Shown one piece after another: positions 1 to 43,631 of a stretch of 64,000 nt of DNA. Under the pieces are notes generated by a model. That model saw nothing but the letters and a program-made list of their open reading frames with translations. It was not told the DNA's origin and did no database searches. The stretch lies in the sequence record MT682711.1; one strand, 5' to 3'. The DNA is from Escherichia phage vB_EcoM_FB. Each line of letters starts with the position of its first letter. Within the stretch, counting starts at the first letter, position 1. The translations under genes were made by a program, and so were the position numbers.

Positions 1-49
1 TGCTCAGCGGAGGTCAAACACTTAATATTGTACATAATATTTCCTTAGA

Positions 50-2261
50 TTAAGCCGCTTCCACGGCTTTCATGAATTTAACAATTTGAGCTACAGAAGC
101 CTCGGTAATGGATGTTCCACGACGATACATGTAGTCCGAAACTAAATGGTAATCAGATTCAAACTGTACAGTCATTTTATCATTGTTGCTTGAAGCATTA
201 TCAGTCAACTTAAAAAAAGTATTGTTACAAATTTTCTTGATAACGGAAAGCTTATCATCAGTGATATAACCATGGAAATTCATATAACGGAATATATCAT
301 AGAAATTACTCAGACGAGTATATGCTTCAGTTACCGGCTTATCACTGAAATACTTGGTCATGAAATTAAGCTGAGGGAACTTAGCAATGATTTCAAGGTA
401 ATACCGAGCTCGAGTATTGCTACCAAGGTAGTCATCAACATCTACCGCGTCTAAGGCTTCAGCATAAGCTTCTAATGTAGCTTCCATCAAGCATTCGCAT
501 TGGCCTAACTTTTTAATCTTTTTGGCAATCTGAGGGCGAATGATATGGAATTCGGTAGCACCAATCAAATTAGCCATACGACACATGGTAGTGGTATTGA
601 TGTCAAAGATACCATAAGCTTCATCCATTCCCATAATATCAGAACGACTGCCAAACAGAACATAACCTGTAATTTCTTCTGCTTCGGCAGCAGTCAAATA
701 CATGGTCTCTTGTTGCCAGCGCCCGTCTTTAATGAACCAACGATAAGCACTCGGTGTTTTAGGACGCGGTTCTGATGAACGGACAGTAACCGGAATCCAT
801 GGCTTAACAATTTTATTCAGTTCAGAGACTTTATAAAAATGAATTGTGTCACCTTTAAAAAGTTCTTTAACCTTTTCAAGTTGTTGCATTTGCAACATTG
901 AATTTGGGTCGACAAAAATAAGGTCAGTTCCGTATTTAGGAATATTGTTCTCTTTAACAATTTTCTTAGCCGAAGCACTGTTGTCCATTGCCAGAGCCCA
1001 AAGACCTCGAACTAATGGCACACGACCTTTTTCATCATCATAAACAACATGGATTTCTTTCTTATTAATGCCTAATAAATTACTAAGTCCTGCTACCGAA
1101 GAAGTATTACCACTTGACTTAATTCGTTTCAAACGTGGGTCTGAAACGACTTCGTAAACCACACCTAAATTAATAAGGTCGTTTTGAAGTGTATAACACT
1201 GGTATAATTTCTCATATGTCAATTTTTCTGTAGTAAACAGGCTAGTTCCACCTTTTTTGGTAAGATAGTCACGAGCACTGTAACCAAGGTTAGAAAGGTC
1301 ACGATAAACATGGCGTGGATTATCAGATTCAACCCATTCCTATGTATCGTTTTTAAAGACCACTGCATCCAGTGCTTCGATACGGGTTGCAATATTTTCC
1401 ATCGTACGTTTATCAAGAGACAACACTTCACGAGAAGGAGCAATATCCAGTGAACCCATAGGGAACTTAATATAAACTACATCATGGCGAGTACGCATCC
1501 ACGTGCCTTTATTATAGGCGGAATCCAATGGATAAACAATACCACCATAAACTGCATAAAGTCCTGAACGTTCGAAGCTGCCATAATTTGTAGTGGTTAC
1601 AGGATGGTAATCGTCAAATTCAGGGAAATAATCAACTTCAACACCGTCTACATCACCAAGACCAATGAAAGGCCGCATGATATAACGAACTTCAGTTTCA
1701 AACTTACGGAAATCTTCTTCATCAACAGGAACCGTGATTTCGATACCTGTTTTATCACCTGGTTTCATAGGTTCTACGAAAGTAGGTTTAATCTGTGGTC
1801 CATCACCATCCATATATGCTACATAACCGCGAACTTCACCGTTATGCCATGAGGTAATATTAAACGTTTCGGTATAACTGAACGGAGATTTTGAACCAAG
1901 GCCAAAGCCACCGATGAAATCGTTAGAAGCCGTTTTGGATGACGCGAAATAAGAGTTGTACAAACCTGTTTCGTTTTCATCACCACGAATTTGGAAATCA
2001 CTCATACCCGGACCGAAGTCACGACATACAAAGCGAGGGTCCAGTTTACCAGGGACCTGTACTTTCCAACGTTCTTTATTACCATTCAGAATATGAGCAT
2101 CAATCATGTTAGTAATCAGTTCACGTACTACAGCAACGTACTTTATTACTATAAAGGTCTGATGACAAAATTTTAAAGACCTTAGGCGATGCCTGGATAG
2201 TAAAGCCTGTGGACTTAGCGCCATTACCAATGATTTGTTCTTTTTCGGTTTCAATAATCAT
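50..2261 (-). pseudogene. rIIA: rIIA-like membrane-associated GHKL ATPase, disrupted: +1 frame change near codon ~40 and an in-frame TAG at 1340-1342
   Basis: ATG at 2261 with upstream GAGAAAAAT gives [14 protein letters not shown]..., then the frame shifts into ORF 1340..2254 carrying the GHKL N-box ([11 protein letters not shown]) and G1 box (RDFGPGMS); amber TAG at 1340-1342 separates it from the in-frame ORF 50..1222; first gene of the T4 map by position. Confidence 0.7.
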
Positions 2262-2268
2262 ATTTTTC

Positions 2269-2472
2269 TCAATTCAGGTTACGTTTAAAAATATTTGCCA
2301 CTTCAAGGAGCTCGTCCTTAGTAGCGATGTCGTTGAGTATTTTATATCTGATTTCTTTAAAGCGTTCTTTAAAATCCTCAGCTGCATTGATATCAAAAAA
2401 TCGCTGGATTAACCGGAATTCTTTATGAACAGCTTTATCAAACAAATCAATATTCACTTTAAAGTTTGTCAT
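2269..2472 (-). CDS. hypothetical protein (rIIA.1 position)
   Basis: 67 aa ORF immediately upstream of rIIA, co-oriented. Confidence 0.5.
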
Positions 2473-2782
2473 TTTTAACTACCTCATGTTGAACATATTC
2501 TCTGGTAGAACCTAGTTCAGCCAGAATTCTTCTCATAGAACCCATTGTACTTTTGTGCTCTCTGTGGCGATACATTATCTCTAAAACCTTTTCCTGGACA
2601 ACAGGAGAGAGCGCCTGGTTATCTTTAATCTTTAAGGCAATAGATTTTACAGCCTTAAGGTATTCAAGTCCCTTACCGCTTGTAGTCACTACTCCTTCGT
2701 CCTTACAGTTACGAATGGCTGTTTCCATAAAGGATAGAGCCAGGTTGTCAGTGTTCACTATACTGTTATCTTGCATAATCAT
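2459..2782 (-). CDS. hypothetical protein
   Basis: 107 aa ORF; AGAGGTGAGA Shine-Dalgarno upstream of ATG. Confidence 0.55.
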   Translation of the reverse strand: MIMQDNSIVNTDNLALSFMETAIRNCKDEGVVTTSGKGLEYLKAVKSIALKIKDNQALSPVVQEKVLEIMYRHREHKSTMGSMRRILAELGSTREYVQHEVVKNDKL

Positions 2783-2785
2783 ATT

Positions 2786-2830
2786 CTCACCTCTTAGAGA
2801 ATCGTATCATACTTTTAATCAGTTGTAAAC
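2786..2830 (-). promoter_or_regulatory. early sigma70-type promoter-like element (GTTTAC -35, TACGAT -10)
   Basis: rc of 2825-2830 is GTTTAC, 18 nt spacer, TACGAT; sits just downstream of terminator hairpin. Confidence 0.4.
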
Positions 2831-2858
2831 CCCGAAAAGGGCCCGAAGGCCCTTATTA
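2831..2858 (-). terminator. intrinsic terminator-like hairpin with UUCG loop
   Basis: aagggcc-cgaa-ggccctt palindrome at 2837-2854; short U tract on minus strand. Confidence 0.45.
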
Positions 2859-2860
2859 GT

Positions 2861-3061
2861 TTAGTTACTTGAATCGACCTTATAGACTTGTCCGCGGGTT
2901 TGGTAAACTTCGCCGTCCCATGTCTCGACTGTAATAGTCACGTATTCTGCAAACTGAGGTCTAGTATCAGTCCAGATATAACCGTATTCACCGGTGACGA
3001 GCGTAACCCAGTACTTTCTCATAAAGTCTCCTTTTGTATGGCACCAATTAGTACCATACAT
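2861..3061 (-). CDS. hypothetical protein
   Basis: 66 aa ORF between gene 39 and terminator. Confidence 0.5.
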   Translation of the reverse strand: MYGTNWCHTKGDFMRKYWVTLVTGEYGYIWTDTRPQFAEYVTITVETWDGEVYQTRGQVYKVDSSN

Positions 3062-3066
3062 ATTTA

Positions 3067-4887
3067 TTACGACATCCAGGCCTTACGGAGTTGAGGGTCA
3101 TTACCAAGGAGCATTTCGAACTGTTCTTTCCAATCTTCAGGTAATTGAACAACATCAAATTTAGGGTCTTGAATCATTCGGCGGTATTCAGCTTTCTCAA
3201 GAGAACCTAGTCCTTTGATATACCGAATAGAATGTTTTGGTAGAGAGTCCTTAGCTTTGGTATAACTAGGAACATCATAGAACCATTCCTGTTCTTTACC
3301 AACCTGAGCAATAATCACCGGAGTTTTACAGAACCGTACTCGGCCTTGTTTGAACAATTCAGGCCATTGGCTAAAGAAGGCTAGCAATGATGGATAAATC
3401 GAACCAGTACCATCCACATCGGCATCAGTCATGATAGCAATATTACGATAGTTGGTTTTCTCTGCAGGTTCACCAATAACTAGTCCAGTGATTGCACAGA
3501 TATCAAATAGTTCTTTGTTCTTCATGATATCAACTGCAGGCATACCCCAGGTATTCATAACCTTACCACGTAATGGATAACCACCTTGAAGGTCTTTATT
3601 ACGGACTTCAATGAATGGACCCATAGCTGAATCGCCTTCGGTCAGGAACAATGTGGTATCAGCATCTTTACCATACATATTCGCCTTGATGTGCTTATGA
3701 ACCTTAGCTTTCAAAGCTTTCTTAGCGGCTTTAGTTTCAGCTGCCTTTTCGGCTGCTAATTTACGTGCTAAAGCAGCTTCGATAATGGGCATCAATACTG
3801 CTTCAGAATTAAGAATGCTTTTGGCCAACTTTTTAGTATCTAACTGAATATGACTACGGATTTCGCCATAAGGGCTAGTCAAACGCTCTTTAGTCTGGGA
3901 ATCAAAACGAAGGTTTTTCATTCCACGGACAAACATCAACATAGTTAGACATTCTTTAACTCGAGCCTTAGTTACTTCGATTTTATATTTCTTTTTAATA
4001 GCTGGAATCAATTCATCACACATATCATCCATTACGCATTCAATGTGATGGCCACCATTTTTAGTATGAATATTGTTCACATAAGTTAAATGACGGAATC
4101 CGTCAGGGCTTCGACCGATTGCAATAGAGCATGTTTCTTGTTCTTGAGTTACAACTTCTTCATCAAACTGCTTAGCATATTTTTTAAACTGGCCTTGAAC
4201 CTTTTTACCATTAAATTTAAATTCTATGTCGGGATAAACCACTGACAAGGTTTGCAAACGGTCTAAAGTAACATCTAAATAGATTTGGTCAAAAGCTGAC
4301 ATTTCAAAGTGGGTAAAATCTGGAATAAATTCAACCTTTGTTCCATTGGCTTTAGATGCTTTGGTTTTCCAAGAAACGTTATCAGCATTATTAGAACAAT
4401 TTACTGATAGCTCATTTTTGCCATCTGAAGTTACACCCGTAAACAACGTAGAGAAAATATTTGTTAAGCTCGAGCCTACACCGTTTTGGCCGCCCGTGAC
4501 CCGTTCTTTATCGTCGCCAAAGTTACCACCTGCCATAGTCTTGGTCCAGGCAGCCACAGGTCCTGGGATTTCTTCACCTTCAGGAGTGATAACCATAGCC
4601 TGCGGAATGCCACGACCATTATCTTCTACAGTAACTTTATTAGTTTTTAAATCAATACCAACTGAGATTTTATTTGCAAATTTAAAATTGGTACGAATGG
4701 CTTCATCAACAGAGTTATCAATGATTTCATCTACTAATTTGAGAACACCTGCAACATAACGAATTTTTTTAAATTCACCAAAGAGAAAACGTTCATGGTC
4801 CTCGAATGATACACTTCCTATGTACATTCCAGGGCGTTTAATAACGTGTTCTTTAATACTAAGCATTTCAATTTTATTATCAATCAT
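3067..4887 (-). CDS. 39: DNA topoisomerase II large subunit (GyrB-like ATPase), single fused 39+60-type polypeptide
   Basis: 606 aa; GHKL motifs IIDNSVDEA and EDNGRGIP; TOPRIM-like C-terminal region; T4 map position. Confidence 0.9.
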   Translation of the reverse strand: MIDNKIEMLSIKEHVIKRPGMYIGSVSFEDHERFLFGEFKKIRYVAGVLKLVDEIIDNSVDEAIRTNFKFANKISVGIDLKTNKVTVEDNGRGIPQAMVITPEGEEIPGPVAAWTKTMAGGNFGDDKERVTGGQNGVGSSLTNIFSTLFTGVTSDGKNELSVNCSNNADNVSWKTKASKANGTKVEFIPDFTHFEMSAFDQIYLDVTLDRLQTLSVVYPDIEFKFNGKKVQGQFKKYAKQFDEEVVTQEQETCSIAIGRSPDGFRHLTYVNNIHTKNGGHHIECVMDDMCDELIPAIKKKYKIEVTKARVKECLTMLMFVRGMKNLRFDSQTKERLTSPYGEIRSHIQLDTKKLAKSILNSEAVLMPIIEAALARKLAAEKAAETKAAKKALKAKVHKHIKANMYGKDADTTLFLTEGDSAMGPFIEVRNKDLQGGYPLRGKVMNTWGMPAVDIMKNKELFDICAITGLVIGEPAEKTNYRNIAIMTDADVDGTGSIYPSLLAFFSQWPELFKQGRVRFCKTPVIIAQVGKEQEWFYDVPSYTKAKDSLPKHSIRYIKGLGSLEKAEYRRMIQDPKFDVVQLPEDWKEQFEMLLGNDPQLRKAWMS

Positions 4888-4935
4888 GTTATTTCCTCAT
4901 GTAGTAGGAGAATATTATCCCATTTCACTTAAAGC

Positions 4936-4958
4936 ATAAAAGGGCCGAAGCCCTTAAT
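4936..4958 (-). terminator. UUCG-loop hairpin (terminator-like)
   Basis: aagggc-cgaa-gccctt at 4940-4955; weak U tract. Confidence 0.35.
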
Positions 4959-5214
4959 CAAATCGAATGGTCGTCTTTTTAAAGAATAACCCAGAACAAA
5001 CAGTTCCTTCAACCCTTTTACCTGTCGGACCTACAGCAATAAAGCCCGTACGTTGGAAATCATCTTCAGAGCAGCCAAATAGGTTGTATCCTGTGATTTG
5101 GATTTGTTCGTAGCCATTTGCATCCAATACACGGGTAGCATTATCGGCATCAGTACATCCAACCAAAGAAACTGCTAATACGAGAGCTGCAATAGAACGA
5201 TTAATATATTTCAT
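4954..5214 (-). CDS. putative lipoprotein
   Basis: 86 aa; N-terminal signal peptide with lipobox LVGC. Confidence 0.55.
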   Translation of the reverse strand: MKYINRSIAALVLAVSLVGCTDADNATRVLDANGYEQIQITGYNLFGCSEDDFQRTGFIAVGPTGKRVEGTVCSGLFFKKTTIRFD

Positions 5215-5220
5215 AATTTC

Positions 5221-5397
5221 TCACTTAGTCAGCAGGTCGTAAAAACCGCCATTAACATGTTTAGGAGCCGAGACTAACCGAACAGCCAGCCGATGGCAAT
5301 CAGGACAAACATCATTATCTCTTTCAGAGATTTTCTTGATTTTTTCGTATTCTTTTGCACAGTCTTCAGATTGGCATTTGTAATCATAAAGTGGCAT
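5221..5397 (-). CDS. small zinc-ribbon protein (FmdB-like CxxC...CxxC)
   Basis: 58 aa ORF below track cutoff, translated by hand: MPLYDYKCQSEDC...CPDCH; TAA of upstream gene abuts its ATG. Confidence 0.5.
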   Translation of the reverse strand: MPLYDYKCQSEDCAKEYEKIKKISERDNDVCPDCHRLAVRLVSAPKHVNGGFYDLLTK

Positions 5398-5398
5398 A

Positions 5399-5806
5399 TT
5401 ATTCCTTAAAGTGAGCTTTCAACATCTGGAAAACTGACCAGGCTTCAGAATTATTAGAGATAGTGATTTTAGTTAAAGGAAAATCACTCGGTTCGAATGG
5501 AGCTGCATCTTCAGACCGGTCTTCGTCTTCACTGTCAACTACAACCATTTCTGTAAAGAATTTACGCTCGCTTGGATATAAAACCATATCAGTGTTATCA
5601 CCATAAGCCAAGTCCACGTTCATCACATAACCTGCCGCTAATCTAACAGGGCAAAAACCTTCAGAATTGACAATGATATCTGCTATAGAAGAATTATTAG
5701 GATTCCTAATATTATGGGAATTCAGCTTACGGAATTCAGCTTCTGCCGCATCATCTTTAAAATAGTACCATTTACCTTTTTCAAATTCAAGTTCTTGATT
5801 AAGCAT
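5399..5806 (-). CDS. hypothetical protein
   Basis: Track ORF 5399..5899 trimmed to internal ATG at 5806, which overlaps the upstream stop (ATGCTTAA). Confidence 0.5.
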   Translation of the reverse strand: MLNQELEFEKGKWYYFKDDAAEAEFRKLNSHNIRNPNNSSIADIIVNSEGFCPVRLAAGYVMNVDLAYGDNTDMVLYPSERKFFTEMVVVDSEDEDRSEDAAPFEPSDFPLTKITISNNSEAWSVFQMLKAHFKE

Positions 5807-6017
5807 TATAAGTTTCCTTCCAGAAGTCGGTGCCTTCAGCAGTGATTTCACGGAACACTGCATAGATAGGGTTTTCATCACCTTGGTTTTCGTATACATA
5901 AACCGACGATAAATGAGAAAACGTATCAGAATGTTCCTTTTGAACCACGATTAAATCAGGGTTGAACAGAACATCTTCAAATTCTTCACGAGTCGAGTTC
6001 ACAGTAACTTTAGCCAT
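5799..6017 (-). CDS. hypothetical protein
   Basis: 72 aa ORF; GAGAGGAAAAT Shine-Dalgarno; promoter upstream. Confidence 0.55.
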   Translation of the reverse strand: MAKVTVNSTREEFEDVLFNPDLIVVQKEHSDTFSHLSSVYVYENQGDENPIYAVFREITAEGTDFWKETYNA

Positions 6018-6035
6018 TTTATTTTCCTCTCATTT

Positions 6036-6076
6036 GTTGATAGGGTAATCTTATCACTACCCTACCATATTGTATA
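6036..6076 (-). promoter_or_regulatory. early promoter-like element with TAAGAT -10 flanked by inverted repeat
   Basis: GTATAC ... TAAGAT ... TACCCTATCAAC; ggtagggta / taccctatc inverted repeat around the -10. Confidence 0.4.
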
Positions 6077-6090
6077 CTGTTTTTTAAACT

Positions 6091-6657
6091 TTATGCAAAA
6101 TGAATATCAGCATACTCGACGATAAAGCTCTCAGGAACAACCTTAAAGGTTCCAAGGAATACGATGTTATAGAGCTTAACGCCTTCTTCAACCCACTGGT
6201 CTGTGATGTAACCGGACATACTAGTGGTTTCATAAGTCGGACCATACTTGCAATTGTATTCAAACGGTTTAGGTGAAACGAAAAAGACACCTTTACCTAA
6301 TTTCCATTTAAAATCAACACCGACATGAGATTGGTCAATAGTTTCAACGTCTTGAGCTACTACGCCACGGATATCATTGCTTTCACATACATATCCATCA
6401 TGGGATTCAACTTCTTCAACTACAGGAGCGATGTATCCGGTAAATTCAGTAGATTCCAAGAATTTAGCACGCACATAACCGAATTGAGTTTCGGTCTGGC
6501 CATTTTTAGGAATGATACGCACTTTTACTTCAGAATTTTCTTCACTGACGCCTTCTTTAAGTTGGATGCTAACAACTTCAACTAAACGGCCCGCAGCTTT
6601 TGAACGAGACTTTTTGGATACACGAACAATACCGCCGATATCGGAAATAGTAATCAT
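6091..6657 (-). CDS. hypothetical protein, paralogue of 6730..7281
   Basis: 188 aa; C-terminal YITDQWVEEGVKLYNIVFLGTFKVVPESFIV matches WVTDQWVEDGVELLNVVHAGDFSVVPRSAVV in the neighbour. Confidence 0.6.
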   Translation of the reverse strand: MITISDIGGIVRVSKKSRSKAAGRLVEVVSIQLKEGVSEENSEVKVRIIPKNGQTETQFGYVRAKFLESTEFTGYIAPVVEEVESHDGYVCESNDIRGVVAQDVETIDQSHVGVDFKWKLGKGVFFVSPKPFEYNCKYGPTYETTSMSGYITDQWVEEGVKLYNIVFLGTFKVVPESFIVEYADIHFA

Positions 6658-6691
6658 AATTTTCTCTCTTGGTTAAAGGATTATTCTCCAT

Positions 6692-6728
6692 GAGAGCCAT
6701 TATAACATGGCTCTCGATAAAGTAAACT
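6692..6728 (-). promoter_or_regulatory. early promoter (GTTTAC -35, 17 nt, TATAAT -10) with the -10 inside an inverted repeat
   Basis: rc 6723-6728 GTTTAC; rc 6699-6704 TATAAT; gagagcc (6692-6698) / ggctctc (6709-6715). Confidence 0.55.
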
Positions 6729-6729
6729 A

Positions 6730-7281
6730 TTAATTCAATACATTAACCACTGCACTACGAGGTACTACACTAAAATCACCTGCATGGACAACGTTCAGAA
6801 GCTCAACACCGTCTTCAACCCATTGGTCTGTTACCCATCCACAGATAGGATTATCAAAAGGACGACGGATAGACACAGCAGCACACAGCAGGTCAGTAGG
6901 GTCTTGTTCGACTTCAACTTCTTGGAACAGGATGAACTCTGCTTCATAAACCAAGATTTTCTCTATTTTGTTATTATCTAATCGACGGCCGTGGATGACG
7001 TAAGATTTAGTAAACCAGTCACTTTTGGTAAATTCTTCAACAATAAATTCGCCTTCGCCAAAAACCTCAGTCAGAGTTTTATGGCCAGAAATCAAGGCCT
7101 TAGTTTTAATTTCAGGTTCAACCAGTTTGTAGGTTTTGCCGATTTCGATAGTCTGAGTATTCATAGCAGGTTCCTTAATTTCCAGTGGTTTAACAGGGCA
7201 TACATAAGTGCTTAAAACATCAAAATCAATCAGTTTAGCTGCCGGATTCGGGGTGTATTTAGGGTTGTAATTAAATTTCAT
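6730..7281 (-). CDS. hypothetical protein, paralogue of 6091..6657
   Basis: 183 aa; shared C-terminal domain with the neighbour. Confidence 0.6.
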   Translation of the reverse strand: MKFNYNPKYTPNPAAKLIDFDVLSTYVCPVKPLEIKEPAMNTQTIEIGKTYKLVEPEIKTKALISGHKTLTEVFGEGEFIVEEFTKSDWFTKSYVIHGRRLDNNKIEKILVYEAEFILFQEVEVEQDPTDLLCAAVSIRRPFDNPICGWVTDQWVEDGVELLNVVHAGDFSVVPRSAVVNVLN

Positions 7282-7787
7282 ATTGTTCTCAATTCAATAA
7301 AATCTACGAGTTCAGCATGGGATTTGCGGAACATTACTTGGCGGCCACCAATGACAACCTCATCTTCAGGGATTTCGTAAACGGCAAGATAGAATCCTTT
7401 AGAAGATAATTCTTCACGCTCTTCACGAGTGAACCAGCGCATCATATCATACTCACTGGCAAAAGCAAAATGGTAGAGATTAACAAACCAACCTGGAATA
7501 TAATCATCACAGCCTTCATAATCAGGCTGGTTCCACTTAGTTCGAATGGTTTTATTAGAATTTTCCACCAACAACTTGTCTTGACCTGGTAGTGGAATAT
7601 TTTTATTATTGGTATGGTGGTGTCTAAAATTAGGTTTGTCGAAACCTACTTCTAATAACCAACCTTCGCTCCATTCATCAAACGAGCCTCTATACGGTGT
7701 TAATTGGCGGCACTGTTGGTGAGTGATTGCTATAACATCGCTGTTATCTAAGATACTGAACGATGACTCCACTCGATAAATTTTCAT
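7278..7787 (-). CDS. hypothetical protein
   Basis: 169 aa ORF; GAGGAGAA Shine-Dalgarno; own promoter. Confidence 0.55.
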   Translation of the reverse strand: MKIYRVESSFSILDNSDVIAITHQQCRQLTPYRGSFDEWSEGWLLEVGFDKPNFRHHHTNNKNIPLPGQDKLLVENSNKTIRTKWNQPDYEGCDDYIPGWFVNLYHFAFASEYDMMRWFTREEREELSSKGFYLAVYEIPEDEVVIGGRQVMFRKSHAELVDFIELRTI

Positions 7788-7810
7788 TTTGTTCTCCTCA
7801 TGTTGATAGG

Positions 7811-7843
7811 GTAGATAATATCATGTCATGAGGAGAAGTAAAC
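7811..7843 (-). promoter_or_regulatory. early promoter (GTTTAC, TATTAT -10) with anti-SD in spacer
   Basis: rc 7838-7843 GTTTAC; rc 7815-7820 TATTAT; catgaggagaa (7827-7837) is the exact reverse complement of the SD region ttctcctcatg (7792-7802). Confidence 0.55.
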
Positions 7844-7847
7844 ACTT

Positions 7848-8522
7848 TTATCGATTTTTTATACTTAATGGGTCAGGATTCTCAGGGACATCTTCCAGAC
7901 CCAAGGCGTATCGTTGGGCATATTTAAGCATCAAGATATCCTTAGCACAGTCATGGATGGAGTCATGAGCAACAAAGCCATTCAATGTTCCGTTAGGCAG
8001 AGGACACATGCTCAATCCACGAGTTAGTGAATATGCTTCAATAGCTGTACGGATGTCACGTTGGTTCCAGAATTTAACCGGTTCTAATTTACTGGTATCA
8101 ATTTCATTCTCAGGAACACCTTCAGAACGATAAGCATCACGGATTAGGTCTACTAAGATAGGAAAGTCAAAGGACATTCCACGGCACCACATCTGAGATT
8201 TCCATTGGTCCACTTCGTTTTTACGGCAGTATTCCAGGAAATTACCGAGACCAATAGAAGTGGACACATCAATTTCAGATGGAGCCAGGTTTTTACGCGC
8301 TTCAGGCCCTTGCTCTTTCCACCACTGCAACGTGCTTTTAGAAAACAGTCGTTTATCACGTTGAGAAGCGAGGTCAAATTTAATACGAAGGCCTCGTTGA
8401 GTAAGCTCTTCAAACGTTTCTACAATCTCTGGATTAGGGTCGTAAGCAATTACGGCTAGGTCGATAACCGCTGCATTTTGAGTAGTGGCAAAGGTTTCAA
8501 AGTCAATAATTATATCTTTCAT
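7848..8522 (-). CDS. dexA: exonuclease A (DEDDh 3'-5' exonuclease)
   Basis: 224 aa; IIDFETF exo motif, HDSIHDCAKD C-terminal motif; T4 map position between 39 and dda. Confidence 0.8.
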   Translation of the reverse strand: MKDIIIDFETFATTQNAAVIDLAVIAYDPNPEIVETFEELTQRGLRIKFDLASQRDKRLFSKSTLQWWKEQGPEARKNLAPSEIDVSTSIGLGNFLEYCRKNEVDQWKSQMWCRGMSFDFPILVDLIRDAYRSEGVPENEIDTSKLEPVKFWNQRDIRTAIEAYSLTRGLSMCPLPNGTLNGFVAHDSIHDCAKDILMLKYAQRYALGLEDVPENPDPLSIKNR

Positions 8523-8758
8523 TTAACGTACCTCATAAGGTCTCGGATTTGGCCAACGGTGTAGTCTTCAATATAAACCGAAGAGATATTGTCGTCCATC
8601 AGATTTTGTACTGCAATAAAATCACTTTCAATCTCTTTAAGAGAGTTCAGGACAGTATGGGCCTTTTGCCTAATGCTGATATTATTTTGGTTGACTTTAA
8701 TAATATGTTCGGTTTCGAATTTCAACTTATAAAATTGGTCTTTAGTTACTTTAATCAT
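8519..8758 (-). CDS. hypothetical protein
   Basis: Track ORF trimmed to ATG at 8758 (MIKVTKDQ...) preceded by GAGGAAAAT, 8 nt after dda stop. Confidence 0.5.
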   Translation of the reverse strand: MIKVTKDQFYKLKFETEHIIKVNQNNISIRQKAHTVLNSLKEIESDFIAVQNLMDDNISSVYIEDYTVGQIRDLMRYVK

Positions 8759-8765
8759 ATTTTCC

Positions 8766-10097
8766 TCAAACGTAGTAGGCGTCAGTACGAGCACGAGTAA
8801 TACTAACATAAGCCAGCTGTGAAGCTAAATTCGCATCAGCCATATGCATGCATGGAGTATAGATGAAACTGTTTTGGACTGTAAGTCCTTGGGATTTATG
8901 AACAGTGCTCACAGGAAGAGCTCGAACCTTACTGAACATTCGCTTGGCTTTCCAGAAATCAGCCCACTTAGGTTTCTTACCACTACCACGCATGGCTTTG
9001 TACTCTGTAGCAACCTTAGCCAAGAAATAATGGAACTTCTCAACTGAAGCCTCATCGATAACCTTTAAATGCTCTACATAGTACTCGTCGTCTTCATCAA
9101 CAGATTCTACTTGCAGGTCCCAGTAATTAATCATTTGACGAGTGCCTACATCCTTAGCAGACAAAAACAACGAGGTATGGTTCACATCCAGAATACGAAC
9201 CATTTGTCCATTATTAAAAATGGTTTCAGAGAATTTCTTACCATCGTATTCAAGTTCCTTCATAAAAGGCTCTTGCATCACTAGGATTTCGCCCTTGATA
9301 TAAGGTGCATCGGTTTCATAAAGCTTTTTACGAATAATGCTATTCAGCTTTTCAACCGATTTATTGGTATAAGCAAACATCCTATTCTCAAACAGGGCAT
9401 CAGCATCTTTTACAATGGAAAAATAATTCATCATAAAATCTTTTAATGCTGTTTGGGATTTAAAACCATGGACACCATGTCCTTCGAATACACAATCTCT
9501 AAACCACCCACCATTACGGATTTCAGTAGCCACCTCAATGATAGGAGCATTACTACGCATCACTTCAGTCAAATGTAATTGTTTGATTTTTGGATGTGTA
9601 AAGAATGGAGACAACTGAGGGCTACCATCACTTCCAGGTTCCACTGGCTGTAGCTGAGCTCTGTCGCCAATCCCTAATACAGTACACCATGGTGGCACGG
9701 AGGATTCAATAATCTTAAACAGCTTACCGTCAATCATCGAGCCTTCGTCAACAACTAGAACATTACATTTGCTCAAGTCAGGAGCTTCGCGTTGTTCAAA
9801 GATGTCCTGGTCTTCGTACGTAGTAGGGTTAATTTTTAGAATTCTATGAATTGTTGATGCTTCTTGACCTGCGAGTTTCGACAATACCTTTTTGGCCGCA
9901 TGAGTAGGCGCAGTCAAAATAACTCCGAGTTCACCATTCTTGACTAGATGGTCAAGAATAAATTTGGTAAGGGTTGTTTTACCTGTACCAGCAGGACCGT
10001 TCAATGTAATCCATTCACCCTTACGTCGTTTAATAGCTTCAATGATTTCTTTAAAGGCCGTCCTCTGGCCGTTGTTCAAGTCTTCAAATGTAATCAT
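8766..10097 (-). CDS. dda: Dda DNA helicase (SF1)
   Basis: 443 aa; Walker A LNGPAGTGKTT; N-terminus and size match T4 Dda. Confidence 0.9.
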   Translation of the reverse strand: MITFEDLNNGQRTAFKEIIEAIKRRKGEWITLNGPAGTGKTTLTKFILDHLVKNGELGVILTAPTHAAKKVLSKLAGQEASTIHRILKINPTTYEDQDIFEQREAPDLSKCNVLVVDEGSMIDGKLFKIIESSVPPWCTVLGIGDRAQLQPVEPGSDGSPQLSPFFTHPKIKQLHLTEVMRSNAPIIEVATEIRNGGWFRDCVFEGHGVHGFKSQTALKDFMMNYFSIVKDADALFENRMFAYTNKSVEKLNSIIRKKLYETDAPYIKGEILVMQEPFMKELEYDGKKFSETIFNNGQMVRILDVNHTSLFLSAKDVGTRQMINYWDLQVESVDEDDEYYVEHLKVIDEASVEKFHYFLAKVATEYKAMRGSGKKPKWADFWKAKRMFSKVRALPVSTVHKSQGLTVQNSFIYTPCMHMADANLASQLAYVSITRARTDAYYV

Positions 10098-10393
10098 GCC
10101 AATTTTACTCGCTTAACATATAAAGTGTCTAAAACTAATTTAAGTTCTCGGGCTCGTTCTTCGGTAGGATATACTGTTTTAGTTTCCCACTTATCAAACC
10201 ACCATTTTCTAGGTGTGCACACCGTTTCAAGGCGTCCAAGCCGAAGATATCTTTTTGTTGACATTTCATAAACGGATAGAGCGGTATCGGCTCCAATCTT
10301 TGTCGAATACAAAGTCACTTCACCGGCCTCTTCTAATGGAATTTCGTACCCGTCTTTGTCCTTGTGAACTAATACGTATGCATAGTACATCAC
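10094..10393 (-). CDS. hypothetical protein (dda.1 position)
   Basis: 99 aa ORF overlapping dda start by 4 nt. Confidence 0.55.
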   Translation of the reverse strand: MMYYAYVLVHKDKDGYEIPLEEAGEVTLYSTKIGADTALSVYEMSTKRYLRLGRLETVCTPRKWWFDKWETKTVYPTEERARELKLVLDTLYVKRVKLA

Positions 10394-10394
10394 G

Positions 10395-11144
10395 TTAACC
10401 TCTAATCAGTGAAAAAATTGAAGCATTCAGCGGAAGACCTTTTTTCAACTTCATTTTGTCAATAAAAGAAAGGTGTTCTAAACGCTCCAGACCTTGAATA
10501 ATTTTATCATACATATCGTAACGCGTTTCTGCTTCAGACAATTTAAACTTGACACGCCAATCAGGCCCACCAATTAAAGATTTAAGACCCTTTTCCATAG
10601 TACCTATTGAAGCGTTAGAACCATGGATACGGGCCTTAACCGCGATGACAGAAGGGGTATTATCAGTGGCTCCTGATTTAATAAGGTCCTTAAGACGTTT
10701 TTCACGCTTTTTAAGACCTCTTTGGGTATCTTTAATATTTTTAACTATTTTACGAATTTTATAATAATTATCTGGGGTAACTTTAAAACTATTAGGCATT
10801 TTAGAACCACCTGAAATACGGGACGCTAAACGAGTCTGTGCACGTTTCAATTCATCTAAAGACAAATCAGCTCGCAACCCGTTGTACTTAACTTTAACCG
10901 GGATTACATTACCTTCGATATAACCTATATCGTTGTTAAAGCGTTCAAACGAAATCTTATCTTTATCTGAATTCTCATCAAAGCGCTCGCCTGAATATGC
11001 ACACACTTTTTGTTCAAGAAGTCTACGAACGTACTTACTAGACAGGTTAAAGTCCTTACCACGTTTTTTGGCAGAGGCTTTAGTGTGTTCGCGACGTTTG
11101 TAAACCTTTAACTCAAATTCATCGTTAGTTTTAATAGTAGGCAT
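10395..11144 (-). CDS. hypothetical basic protein at the T4 srd position
   Basis: 249 aa lysine/arginine-rich ORF between dda.1 and the ART pair; no secure motif. Confidence 0.5.
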   Translation of the reverse strand: MPTIKTNDEFELKVYKRREHTKASAKKRGKDFNLSSKYVRRLLEQKVCAYSGERFDENSDKDKISFERFNNDIGYIEGNVIPVKVKYNGLRADLSLDELKRAQTRLASRISGGSKMPNSFKVTPDNYYKIRKIVKNIKDTQRGLKKREKRLKDLIKSGATDNTPSVIAVKARIHGSNASIGTMEKGLKSLIGGPDWRVKFKLSEAETRYDMYDKIIQGLERLEHLSFIDKMKLKKGLPLNASIFSLIRG

Positions 11145-11174
11145 AATATTTTTCTCATCTTACGGACGATTAGC

Positions 11175-11213
11175 TGATAGGTCTATAGTATCATGTTGCT
11201 CGGTAAAGTAAAC
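11175..11213 (-). promoter_or_regulatory. early promoter (GTTTAC, TACTAT, AGACCTATCA leader)
   Basis: gtaaac at 11208-11213 and atagta at 11185-11190 on plus. Confidence 0.55.
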
Positions 11214-11282
11214 ACTTTTTTGCTTTAAATTTTCGACGGTATAATGAATCAAGGACTTTGCCTTTCAATTAAACCGGGTGGT

Positions 11283-11897
11283 TCAGTAAGAAAGAACGGA
11301 AAGATTCCAAATGGTGTAATTATTCCATTTAGGATTTCTCTCAATAGAGTCTACGCGCAGCGTAGTTCCCGCAGGGAACATCATCTCATCTTCATCATTG
11401 ATTAATTGTAAGTTTGCTACACGGGTAGATTCAGGAAATGCACCTGGGAACTCTTCAGGGGGCGCGGCACATAACATTTTAAAGATTTCTTCCTGATAAT
11501 TGTACACAAATGGTGCATCATTAATACAAAAGATATTAAATGTGCCGTAGAAGTTATAAGATGCGAAGTTACGAGCTACATTGAAATCTTTTGAGAAGCT
11601 CATTACTCGGTCGAATTCAATTACGGCACCTACACACATAGTAGATTCAAGATATGCCATAGTCTTCTTAGAAATCCCACGGTACAACTTGTCAGGCACT
11701 ACAGAAGTCAGGTTCTTACGAATAATTTTGTTCAGAGTTTCCTGGATAGTATCCGGTTTATTTTCCATACACTGCCAGAGGGTACTCTGTTCTAAATCAG
11801 AATACACCTCATCAATTTCTATCTGAGTATTCTCACGGAAATCATCGCATTTGGCATTGTTGATAAATTCTGCTAATTTATGGCTTGGATATAACAT
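11283..11897 (-). CDS. ADP-ribosyltransferase, ModA/ModB-like
   Basis: 204 aa; R-S-E type motifs (LYRG, SFS, E-rich); paralogue of the next gene; T4 modA/modB position. Confidence 0.65.
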   Translation of the reverse strand: MLYPSHKLAEFINNAKCDDFRENTQIEIDEVYSDLEQSTLWQCMENKPDTIQETLNKIIRKNLTSVVPDKLYRGISKKTMAYLESTMCVGAVIEFDRVMSFSKDFNVARNFASYNFYGTFNIFCINDAPFVYNYQEEIFKMLCAAPPEEFPGAFPESTRVANLQLINDEDEMMFPAGTTLRVDSIERNPKWNNYTIWNLSVLSY

Positions 11898-12765: not shown

Positions 12766-13256
12766 TAGTAACCACCGATAGGACCGTAGCCATACATACG
12801 AGCTCGCGCCTTAGCATCGCAAATAGCGTCTTCAGTCATGGTAAAGAGCAATCCAATATCAAAGTGTTTCCAAATCTGACGTTCGACTTCAGTAAGGTCT
12901 TCGGTAGCGGAAATCAAATATGTACGACCTTTAAGACGCTCATTTGCCATTTTATCTCTATCCTTATAGAAAATATCCATGGTTCCTTCGGCGTATGGGT
13001 CCGCCGGATAACGATAACCCTTGATATGTAATGCTTCAGCCAGGCTAAAAGGACAACCCTCAGCAACATCAACATTTTTATTATGATATGCCTTCATTAG
13101 AATATTTTCTGGTGGCTTAATATCTTTTAATCGTGTTTCTAGCTGGGTTATAGAATTCGTACCATTATCGACAAGGATAAGACACGCCGTAGCATCATAA
13201 GGACGCGTTTGTCCGGCAGAATCACGAACAAAGAATTCGAGTTCATAGACTTTCAT
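12765..13256 (-). CDS. hypothetical protein
   Basis: 163 aa ORF; AAGAGGAAAA SD. Confidence 0.6.
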
Positions 13257-13607: not shown

Positions 13608-13930
13608 TAATCACACGAGCCGGACGATGAGTCGCAGCTTCCTGAGTCATAAGATGAATAAGACGAATCACCGGTCCATGAACTAACAGCAGCCGCAACC
13701 ATAATAGGAGTGGTATCAATATGGCTTGTGCGACGAGCTTCTAAATGTTCTTTAAACTTTTTAGAATTCAAAGGAAGGGCACCCAGGCCCACATTACCTG
13801 CTTTTTCAGGTTGCCGTATAACTTCTTCCATCATACCATCGCCCACATAAACATATTCCTTCAGACCTGAGATAGGAACCACCCCTTCACCAGGTTTGGT
13901 CTTGAAAAAATTCTTAAGCCAACGAATCAT
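13607..13930 (-). CDS. hypothetical protein
   Basis: 107 aa ORF with Ser/Cys-rich C-terminus. Confidence 0.5.
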   Translation of the reverse strand: MIRWLKNFFKTKPGEGVVPISGLKEYVYVGDGMMEEVIRQPEKAGNVGLGALPLNSKKFKEHLEARRTSHIDTTPIMVAAAVSSWTGDSSYSSYDSGSCDSSSGSCD

Positions 13931-36125: not shown

Positions 36126-37144
36126 CGTGTAACCTCATTATAAAGTTGTGCGGCCATAGTCTTAAGGGCTTTAACATCGTCTTCAGTGTGGCCATCAGGA
36201 AGGGCATCGATATAATCATACATCATATCCAAGAGGGACTTAACTTCATCTTCCTCTTCAGAATCATCGATATCAACACTGTTATCTACCTTAGACACAA
36301 TACGTAAAGAGTGAACAACCTTTTCAAGTTCAGATTCGAACTTGGTAAGCCCGTCATCAATTTTATCGACTATAACACGAACCGCAATATTTGTAAAATC
36401 TTTGTAATCGATAGTCGCATTCGGATAATGAATCTTACGATGCCAACAAGTTTCATTGATGATGAAATCCATTTTATGGGTTTCTGTATCGAAAATCCAG
36501 AAGCCACGAGGGTCGTTCTCATCACCTGCAGTCAGGGTCCATGGCGTACCAATATACTTGACGTTTGCTGCATCAGAAATGGTGTGGAAGTGACCAGACC
36601 ATACTTGCTTATACTTCTTAAGGAAATCAGGTTCTAAACCATGTGATTTCATTCCTTTATAGAAATAGAAACCATTTAATTCCCAGTGGCCAATACAGAA
36701 ATCGGCAGTAGTATTTTTGATATGGTCCATGATATCGGTCGTGTTTTCTTCACACATCCATGGAATCAAATCAATTTCTGTACCATCAAAATTAACCGTA
36801 GTAGGTTTCTCAATAACCTTGATATGGTCGTATTTACCCAGAACTTCAGAAGCAGCGTTCGGAGTCAATGTGTTTTTGTAGTGCATATCATGGTTACCAA
36901 CGACCGTATACATGGTAATGCCGTTGGCTTTAAGCAAATCGGAGATTTCGCGAGCGAATTCCATACACTTATGGGTAATTGCTTTACGAACGTCAAAGAT
37001 ATCACCGTATTGAATCCATACAGTAATGCCATTTGCTTTAGAATAATTAATAGCGTCTTGGATACCTTGACGTTGGATATTTTGTACCCACACATCATCG
37101 GCCTTCACTCCAAGGTGCCAGTCACCTGTGTTTAATATTTTCAT
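36122..37144 (-). CDS. 47: recombination nuclease (Mre11/SbcD-like)
   Basis: Phosphoesterase motifs GDWHLG, GDIFD, GNHD; start set to ATG at 37144 (MKILNTGDW), giving 340 aa versus 339 in T4. Confidence 0.9.
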   Translation of the reverse strand: MKILNTGDWHLGVKADDVWVQNIQRQGIQDAINYSKANGITVWIQYGDIFDVRKAITHKCMEFAREISDLLKANGITMYTVVGNHDMHYKNTLTPNAASEVLGKYDHIKVIEKPTTVNFDGTEIDLIPWMCEENTTDIMDHIKNTTADFCIGHWELNGFYFYKGMKSHGLEPDFLKKYKQVWSGHFHTISDAANVKYIGTPWTLTAGDENDPRGFWIFDTETHKMDFIINETCWHRKIHYPNATIDYKDFTNIAVRVIVDKIDDGLTKFESELEKVVHSLRIVSKVDNSVDIDDSEEEDEVKSLLDMMYDYIDALPDGHTEDDVKALKTMAAQLYNEVTR

Positions 37145-37284
37145 AAGCCAAGCGCCGTTATTGCAATGCAAAATAAAATTATTGAAATGAACCCGTCAGG
37201 AGTGGAAAAGAATCCTATCCAACAAGCTCGTGTGAATGTGTAGAATGCCATGAATAACACGACATATCCTAAAAGTAGTTCCAT
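37141..37284 (-). CDS. small membrane protein
   Basis: 47 aa hydrophobic ORF translated by hand; TGAGGAGAA SD; ATGA overlap with gp47 start. Confidence 0.45.
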   Translation of the reverse strand: MELLLGYVVLFMAFYTFTRACWIGFFSTPDGFISIILFCIAITALGL

Positions 37285-37325
37285 ATGTTCTCCTCAGTTG
37301 GTTCATTTTATCATCCAAATATAAA

Positions 37326-37350
37326 GCAAAAAAGGAGCCTAAGCTCCTTT
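37326..37350 (-). terminator. intrinsic terminator (hairpin plus U tract)
   Basis: aaaggagc-ctaa-gctccttt at 37331-37350, A5 on plus flank. Confidence 0.6.
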
Positions 37351-38334: not shown

Positions 38335-38839
38335 TCTTATCAGACCCTGGTGCTTTAGTTAAAGAGGTTTCATACTGAGTCATTTTGTCGTAGATATCTT
38401 GGATAAAGGTTTCATCTGCAATACCTACCATGTCGTCATCATTACTGTCATAGACATTATGGACGAAGTAGCTATATTTCTTTGCCATTTCTTTACGTTC
38501 TTTTTTGATACGCTGAACGAAGGCATTAAAACAAGCCATAGTGATATATGCATGTGGGTTGTCGTATTTTGTTTCGTCGAAATTGTGAAGACCTTTAATC
38601 GAAGCTTCGATTCCATCAGCTATCATTTCCTGCCGCCAAGATTGGGTATATCCTGAGAAGTTGAAACGCTTGCTGAGGCCTTCTGCTATAAGCATAATAG
38701 CCAATCCTATAGTATCATTTTGTCTAATGATTTTATTAGGGTCGGTGTTAGCATATAATTCCTGCTTCCAACTTGTAATAGCTTTAAGAAGCTCCTTGTT
38801 ATTTACATAATTATTTTTTGTTAACTTCACCTGATTCAT
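38282..38839 (-). CDS. 55: late-transcription sigma factor
   Basis: NYVNNKELL...[28 protein letters not shown]...[22 protein letters not shown] matches T4 gp55 as recalled; start set to ATG at 38839. Confidence 0.9.
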
Positions 38840-39506
38840 AAGCCCTCTTAAACCTATCAACTAGTGGTCTAAAATTATTTATCGTATATGGATAACCTAG
38901 TTCACAGCATTTGCGCCAGAATTTAGAATAACTAGGGCGTCCTTCCTTAATCCAAAGTTCATGGAACTCATCATATAATACATATGTTGGATTTTTAGCA
39001 AACTTGGAATAATTCTCTATAGAGTAATATTCTTTGTTCTTTTTACTTTTGGCCTCTCTAACTTCAGGATTAGCATTATACTCTTTATGGATTCGACGCA
39101 TCATTTCTCGATGCTCTTCATTTTCCCAAGACTTTTTAATAGAGTTGGAAACCCGCTCTTTATATTCAGGGTCCTGCCAGCGTTCGGTAACTTCTTTAGA
39201 CTGTTCTTCAAGTCTTTCCGGTGTCGGAGGAGCATAACCACCTATACCACCAGGTTTCATATTGACGCAGTTAGTTATTTCGGACATGGCATTTTCTACC
39301 AAAAGCTCTTCAAATTCAAAAGCAAGCTCACTTGTCTCAAAATAACATAAGGCCTCTATATTAAAAGAGCATTTCCCTGAGGCCTTAGCATCTTCTACGA
39401 ATTTGCCACTACCGACATACCCGTCATCTATAAATCCGGTGTGTTTACCGAAATAGTAATAAGTATCATTTTCGGATTTTATAGTGGTCATATAACAATA
39501 GTGCAT
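38811..39506 (-). mobile_element. GIY-YIG homing endonuclease gene (Seg-like)
   Basis: 231 aa; N-terminal YYYFGKH...GYVGSG GIY-YIG motif; basic C-terminal tail; stop overlaps gp55 start. Confidence 0.6.
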
Positions 39507-42557: not shown

Positions 42558-43631
42558 TTAAGATTTCAAATAAGTTATATAACTTTCCAACCATTCAATC
42601 ATTTCTGATTTTTCGGTGGCAGTCATAGGATTAACTATATCCTTAAAACTGTTAAGCATTACTTGGGACGTAACTTTTGTTTTTTCGGATTTTACCAATT
42701 CAATAGAGCTAAGTTTTTTAATATGCTCTTCTTTGCTTTCGACTACTAATTTAATAGCTCTTCCGTCTTTAATAGCTTTATTAGCCTGTCCACGGGTCAT
42801 ACCATAAAACTCTTCTAACTCAGAATTGGATAAAAATTTTGTGCCTGAAGAAACATCTTGGAATTTATAACGTTGACGAGAAATATCAGGCGGAAGGCCC
42901 CAGCGGCCTTTAATAAGGTCGAGGGTTCCTTGAAGAAGCCTGGTTAGATGGTTGCTACTTAAATCATTATTACGAGCAAACTCGTTTTGATTTAGAACTT
43001 CCACTGCTTTATTTTCTTCATAGTCCCATATAGTAAATTTAGAGCAATTATAGGTAACAGAATGTTTTTCTGTTCTAGAACGGCCTAATTGCCACCCAGA
43101 TTTAATATACTCAGCAACTTCATCGGGTTTAACATACTTAGTTTTCTGGCCGATTTTGTACATCATGGGCCAGGAAACGTGTTCGTTTCCTTTATCAAAT
43201 TCCATCCATCTTGCAATATCATCTTCGGATAAATCGTCAAAGCAGTTAGGGTTGAAATGACCGCCAATTTGTTTGTTGAGCCACATAGGGTCTCGTAAAA
43301 CATCATTGGCTAATTGCATTTCCATTTCGGCCATAAGGGTTTTACCCCAAGTAGGATACCACCCTACAATAAGGTACTCTTTAGGGCTTATACCCTTTTC
43401 TATCATTGCGTTTACTTCATTAGATGATGATGTATAGGTTTTCCAATCAGATTCCTCAAATCCTTTTTTAGGACCACGCTTAAATGTGCATGGCGCGGCT
43501 TTGATTCGTTTCCAAATCTTTTTAGCGCCAACATATTTTTTACCGTCTTCAAAAGTGATTACGTAGACAAACCCGATATGGTTTTTAATATCGGTTTCTT
43601 CAAATACCGCCCAATGACCAAAATCTTGCAT
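42558..43631 (-). mobile_element. GIY-YIG homing endonuclease gene (Seg-like)
   Basis: 357 aa; N-terminal GFVYVITFEDGKKYVGAKK GIY-YIG motif; long basic C-terminal region. Confidence 0.55.

Follow-up and report, generated by a model that had tools for sequence, protein, structure and literature searches.

The rIIA gene of Escherichia phage vB_EcoM_FB is interrupted twice, by a +1 frameshift after codon 42 and by an amber codon that replaces Gln307. We interpret this as a genuine rIIA null allele, in which two real inactivating mutations have given an rII-type phage with intact rIIB and rI genes, and we assign this reading a probability of roughly 0.8. The lesions themselves were observed, as were their uniqueness and presence in the assembled reads; the inactivity of the gene, the phenotype and the way in which the allele arose are what we infer. 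The analysis was done on a stretch of 64,000 nucleotides of the phage genome (MT682711.1), which is called the window here.

The rIIA gene of vB_EcoM_FB is interrupted twice

The window begins at the rIIA end of the genome of a JS98-like T-even phage (Dhakavirus). The gene order rIIA.1 - rIIA - rIIB with the topoisomerase gene 39 close by, which is the arrangement expected for rIIA, was found in the window. The interrupted rIIA occupies positions 50..2261 on the minus strand, and its 2212 nt correspond to the 2211-nt gene of the relatives plus one inserted base. Upstream of it, the intact rIIA.1 (2269..2472, minus strand) encodes 67 aa; the identical product in the Logan assembly of the sequencing run SRR12228472 has a match to the Pfam family T4_RIIA1. 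On the other side, the rIIB start lies at 1..35 (minus strand, ATG 35-33) and the gene extends past the window edge, so that the window starts 35 nt within rIIB. Records of T4 by convention begin at the rIIA/rIIB boundary, and the start of the window fits this. The identical Logan contig has rIIB as an intact ORF of 322 aa (10853..11821; Pfam Phage_T4_rIIB) and, past it, genes with Pfam matches to Sequestin and Phage_T4_End_IV. The rI gene is among 114 genes that were found intact in the window.

The rIIA protein begins with MIIETEKEQ at ATG 2261-2259, in front of which a GAG-type ribosome-binding site is present, and the gene ends at TAA 52-50 on the minus strand. The initial annotation had described two interruptions between these points, and all of its coordinates and translations hold to the base. 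The first is an additional T at 2135..2136 (minus strand), where TT stands after codon 42 instead of the single T of every relative. This changes CGT GCT (Arg42 Ala43) to CGTTGCT, and the native frame then ends at TGA 2121-2123. The product of the native start (2121..2261, minus strand) consists of 42 native residues followed by CCST and TGA 2123-2121, in total 46 codons. Codons 43-306, which encode the GHKL ATPase-like body, extend over 1343..2134 (minus strand) and are readable only in the +1 frame relative to the native ATG, as had been noted from the different frames of N-terminus and body. The second interruption is the amber TAG at 1340..1342 (minus strand), which replaces Gln307 by a C>T change at 1342 on the coding strand. 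Codons 308-736 and the stop codon follow at 50..1339 (minus strand) in the same frame as the body, and this frame is free of further stops until TAA 52-50, which bears out the earlier description of a TAG in an otherwise continuous reading frame. The two lesions are 794 nt apart. The insertion is a change from T to TT without a homopolymer, and the amber is a simple transition; neither site is of a kind prone to sequencing errors. In the window, no ORF of about 736 codons runs from the native ATG without interruption, as it would in a functional rIIA.

For the identification of the gene, the reading frame was repaired by removing one T and reading the TAG as Gln. The repaired RIIA has 736 aa; its identity is 99.7% to the RIIA of phage PSD9 and about 53% to T4-type RIIA (T2, RB10) over residues 5-735. 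It matches PHROG 612 (phrog_612), annotated as 'RIIA lysis inhibitor', over residues 1-732 of 736 with an E value of 4.9e-232. The match of its N-terminal region to Pfam HATPase_c_3 is weak (E 5e-4; 20.5 bits, under the 25-bit cut-off). The GHKL-type motif RELxxNxxD is present, and in the form RAVVRELxxNxxD it is kept in six genera, namely Tequatrovirus, Mosigvirus, Kanagawavirus, Tegunavirus, Jiaodavirus and that of an Acinetobacter phage. The frameshift site is located immediately N-terminal to this conserved motif.

Since the frameshift cuts translation off at TGA 2121-2123, only a 46-residue peptide is expected from the native ATG. Ribosomes starting there would shift frame before they reach the GHKL ATP-binding motif, and even if the frame were restored by any means, translation would still end at codon 307. 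The first possible restart after the amber is TTG 1222, located 40 codons downstream. Judged by eye, neither TTG 1222 nor the internal ATG 2224 appears to have a usable Shine-Dalgarno sequence.

The relatives carry an uninterrupted rIIA

A 2.6-kb stretch with rIIA has matches in 66 phage records, in 50 of them over at least 80% of its length. The best matches, with 97-99% identity, are all Dhakavirus phages (LHE83, PSD9, IME540, E33, Bp7, WG01 and QL01). In every relative record examined, rIIA is annotated as one CDS of 2211 nt between rIIA.1 and rIIB, and the topoisomerase gene 39 is close by. The gene was aligned by MAFFT with 5 relatives and then also with 14 Dhakavirus relatives, whose genes are all exactly 2211 nt long. 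Across the whole 2.6-kb alignment there is one indel, the extra T, and it is private to vB_EcoM_FB. The initial annotation had placed either a 1-nt insertion or a 2-nt deletion within 2105-2140 and had proposed an alignment to locate it; the alignment with the relatives resolves this to the insertion, at 2136/2135, and leaves no place for the deletion.

At the amber site, 12 of the 14 relatives have a C (CAG or CAA, Gln) and the other 2 an A; in other genera, residue 307 is Q or K. Neither the frameshift nor the amber was found in any of the 14 aligned Dhakavirus relatives. It had been pointed out beforehand that homologues sharing the stop and the frame change would speak for a conserved feature, and the aligned relatives provide no such case. 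When the repaired RIIA was used as a tblastn query, about 50 Dhakavirus records showed a single-piece match with 100% coverage and hence an intact rIIA of 736 codons. Since the lesions are absent from the relatives and about 50 records are intact, a conserved recoding signal is ruled out. In total, 2,924 phage records have an rIIA homologue. The median pairwise dN/dS of the 14 relatives is 0.06, which means strong purifying selection on the gene, and an interrupted rIIA is therefore an exception rather than a tolerated variant.

Four relatives are listed with 'rIIA lysis inhibitor (x2)', which suggested a conserved split of the gene. In these records, the second CDS is a mislabelled rIIA.1 and rIIA has its normal 2211 nt, and the idea of a conserved split was rejected.

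Both lesions are present in the assembled reads

According to its genome announcement, vB_EcoM_FB has a genome of 171,555 bp with QL01 as the closest relative. It was sequenced on a MiSeq (2x300) to 134x and assembled with Geneious (SRR12228472 / MT682711). The phage originates from poultry bedding in Spain and was grown on a field E. coli isolate. In the announcement rIIA goes unmentioned and no phenotype is given.

The gp39 protein of the window was matched exactly on one contig of a public assembly index, the Logan contig of SRR12228472. This assembly is 100% identical to positions 1-10887 of the window, both lesions included, and its contig is unbroken for 59.6 kb through the rIIA region. 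The Logan assembly and that of the depositors were built from the same reads by different programs and are independent in software only. In the Logan contig, the gene caller divided rIIA into products of 294 aa (ATG 2224) and 390 aa (TTG 1222), and among the indexed assemblies both fragment proteins occur in SRR12228472 only. The assembly collection has no gene for the 46-codon product of the native start. Lesion-specific k-mers were found neither in IMG/VR nor in the JGI metagenome contigs; these negative results carry little weight since the wild-type k-mers themselves occur just once each in IMG/VR.

As an error check, the 133 annotated proteins of QL01 were searched by tblastn against the 64-kb window. 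Full-length orthologues of 114 of them were found, covering 53,028 nt, with no frame change or internal stop, and rIIA was the sole gene with either defect. The other QL01 genes are absent, lie past the window end or differ at the C-terminus only. Within this coding sequence, two random lesions would both land in rIIA with a probability of about 0.0016. Given the 114 uninterrupted genes, the idea of a generally poor sequence was rejected.

The two lesions need not be on the same genome. The stock could contain a mixture of rII mutants, most of whose genomes would have either the insertion or the amber, and the consensus would have merged the two. As is established from T4 genetics, rII-type mutants recur and may become enriched in plaques as well as in lysates. 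At 794 nt, the distance between the lesions is greater than the k-mer length and than any single read, which keeps the assembly from phasing them, and a mixture would account for two lesions without a long neutral period. However, a consensus or a contig normally represents the majority allele at each site, and if both lesions are above 50%, some genomes must have both. The unbroken passage of the Logan contig through the region also argues against a mixed stock, as would a triple plaque purification, if it was performed. We consider such a mixture unlikely.

Another explanation is that both interruptions are errors of sequencing or consensus calling and that rIIA is intact in the phage. Poor consensus calling sometimes produces such a pair of lesions in a single gene of a short announcement, and both assemblies rest on one run. 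Against this, the Illumina coverage is 134x and two assemblers agree; 114 genes over 53 kb have no other frameshift or premature stop; the inserted T is outside a homopolymer, and the amber arose by a plain substitution. From these points a pair of sequencing errors in rIIA appears very unlikely. The initial annotation had set an rII-type mutant against two errors in one gene, and the second assembly of the reads, the coverage, the intact genes and the context of the lesions all favour the mutant. We conclude that both lesions are very probably real in the sequenced phage stock.

Age and origin of the inactivation

Compared with the 14 relatives, the rIIA of vB_EcoM_FB has six private changes: two synonymous ones at Gly14 and Gly154, the substitutions Q166K, Q307amber and R355C, and the +T insertion. 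Apart from the lesions, the DNA of the gene is 98.9% identical to that of intact relatives. From this 98.9% identity on the DNA level and 99.7% on the protein level, the inactivation is recent. A long-standing decay of a pseudogene was considered and rejected; the private changes amount to 2 synonymous changes, 3 non-synonymous changes and 1 indel.

Among the private substitutions, 3 of 5 are non-synonymous, compared with a background fraction of 0.1-0.2 (binomial P 0.009-0.058), which hints at a relaxed constraint on the terminal branch. Residues 166, 307 and 355 vary between genera, and since both missense sites (Q166K and R355C) are among these naturally variable positions, the signal is only suggestive.

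For the null allele that we favour, the first lesion would have inactivated rIIA and the second would have been neutral thereafter. The first may have been fixed either in nature or in the course of enrichment and purification from single plaques, in which plaques of the r type are readily chosen. Two knock-outs together with Q166K and R355C exceed what a few laboratory passages would be expected to produce at T4-like mutation rates, and this counts against our explanation.

The loss of rIIA might also have been selected in the field, if RIIA were sensed by a defence of the poultry E. coli host or were a liability against it, or the fragments or a low-level frameshifting might keep a partial function. 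We find this most improbable. If it were true, the isolate would mark a host background that counter-selects the otherwise near-universal rIIA.

Recoding at the lesions

The body frame is open from position 2254 and would be regained by a +1 slip at any point within the first 46 codons. The amber replaces a Gln, and a supE-type suppressor host would give back the wild-type residue. T-even phages have tRNA genes outside the region covered by the window; in the 64-kb window itself, no tRNA genes were found. By inspection of the sequence, no known slippery motif was recognised near the shift. The RNA of positions 2160-2060 folds with -14.5 kcal/mol, which is no better than shuffled sequences (z 0.21). 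Of the 117 other genes in the window, 7 end with TAG, as many as in QL01, and the combination of TAG avoidance with a suppressor tRNA, as for amber suppression or TAG reassignment, was not found within the 64 kb. With these observations and with lesions that occur in no relative, it is scarcely credible that +1 frameshifting before TGA 2121-2123 and amber read-through or a suppressor tRNA still give a functional RIIA, despite the open body frame and the replaced Gln.

Programmed recoding, as in prfB (+1), dnaX (-1) and the bypass of T4 gene 60, has in common with the present case that a frame change is needed for the whole protein, and nothing else. The lesions here are unconserved and come without a slippery site or a stimulatory structure. 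A gene with a programmed frameshift or read-through was rejected for the same reasons.

Other features of the window

The large subunit of topoisomerase II is encoded at 3067..4887 (minus strand) by a single ORF of 606 aa, equivalent to the T4 genes 39 and 60. It has neither a split nor a translational bypass of the gene-60 type, and the same is the case in QL01.

At 42558..43631 (minus strand), a SegE-like GIY-YIG homing endonuclease of 357 aa (Pfam PF19835, E 5e-34) is found at the position of QL01 gene 49 (endonuclease VII). No gp49 homologue was found in the 64-kb window; the sole trace of it is the C-terminus of the 357-aa ORF (IEWLESYITYLKS), which has a 13-residue resemblance to gp49 residues 85-97 at an E value of 0.46. 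The arrangement with the SegE-like gene is matched at about 92% identity in PSD9, Bp7, E33, ABTNLS3, LQ5, 04086 and vB_EcoM_005, and no endonuclease VII is annotated under the match. A second homing-endonuclease ORF, of 231 aa, is located at 38811..39506 (minus strand; phrog_314, E 6.5e-20; no Pfam match). It is an insertion relative to QL01 and lies upstream of gene 55 (late sigma factor), overlapping its 5' end by about 50 nt. At 37144..37342, the HNH endonuclease gene that QL01 has beside gene 47 (QL01 36409-37026) is missing, which is the third mobile-endonuclease difference between this phage and its close relative QL01.

The homologues of mrh and mrh.1 (12795..13256 and 13661..13930, minus strand) align to QL01 over residues 1-153 of 162 and 1-94 of 111 only. 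Since the alignments end early, the C-termini of both proteins differ from those of QL01; the aligned parts have no frame change or stop.

Relation to known rII mutants and expected phenotype

The precedents for the allele are the rIIA/rIIB point, amber and frameshift mutants of T4 from Benzer and the acridine-type frameshifts of Crick and Brenner. In the genetic sense of Benzer, an rII mutant fails on K-12(lambda) or rexAB hosts and forms r-type plaques on E. coli B. The classical T4 mutants and vB_EcoM_FB have RIIA proteins of one family and the arrangement rIIA.1-rIIA-rIIB in common, and their lesions fall into the same classes, +1 frameshift and CAG>TAG amber; the sensitivity to lambda RexAB that was demonstrated for T4 would be expected here as well. 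In contrast to the T4 mutants, vB_EcoM_FB is a Dhakavirus field isolate obtained without deliberate selection, and it has two lesions in one cistron.

Two other environmental isolates have a rIIA that departs from the standard in their records. For the T-even-like vB_EcoM_RZ (NC_070780.1; Gaprivervirus), two overlapping 'RIIA lysis inhibitor' CDS are annotated and the tblastn match falls into two pieces, which implies a mid-gene frameshift. In the Dhakavirus vB_EcoM_005 (NC_055783.1), RIIA has 670 aa and is about 66 residues shorter than in the relatives. Unlike the double interruption in vB_EcoM_FB, these are, judging from the records, single lesions that differ from it in kind and position and have arisen independently.

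Loss of rII without a cost on the propagation host, revealed by whole-genome sequencing only, has also been described for T4. When T4 was evolved on toxIN hosts, deletions spanning rII arose, and a T4 from a culture collection had an r1589-like rIIA-rIIB fusion. These deletion and fusion phages no longer grew on lambda lysogens or rexAB hosts. Their lesions are large and result from genome-size compensation or from historical mutagenesis, whereas vB_EcoM_FB has two point lesions and an intact rIIB.

In T4, rIIA and rIIB are accessory genes, since transposon insertions are tolerated in the absence of RexAB and depleted in its presence. T4 clones without rII have lost the growth on a lambda lysogen, and a mutant with the rIIAB fusion was blocked by plasmid-borne rexAB, whereas wild-type Tevenvirinae were not blocked. 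By analogy with T4, the loss of rIIA would cost nothing on hosts without a Rex-like abortive-infection system. Also from T4, no growth of vB_EcoM_FB is predicted on RexAB-expressing (lambda-lysogenic) hosts, and rapid-lysis plaques may appear on some strains, depending on the host. Taken together, the phage is probably Rex-sensitive and otherwise viable, and such a viability agrees with its successful isolation and propagation.

Implications

The double lesion adds a new allele to the best-known class of phage mutations; it involves no new mechanism and raises no new mechanistic question. For the annotation, rIIA should be marked as a pseudogene instead of being listed as two or three separate products named 'hypothetical' or 'rIIA'. 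The isolation of vB_EcoM_FB was aimed at a candidate agent for use against pathogenic E. coli. By analogy with T4, hosts with RexAB-like prophage defences are predicted to exclude an rIIA-null phage, and its lysis timing may be altered. Since the stock would be rIIA-null, its host-range and burst data may not represent the wild type. The textbook rII-type mutants of T4 thus appear unnoticed among the deposited field isolates of other T-even genera.
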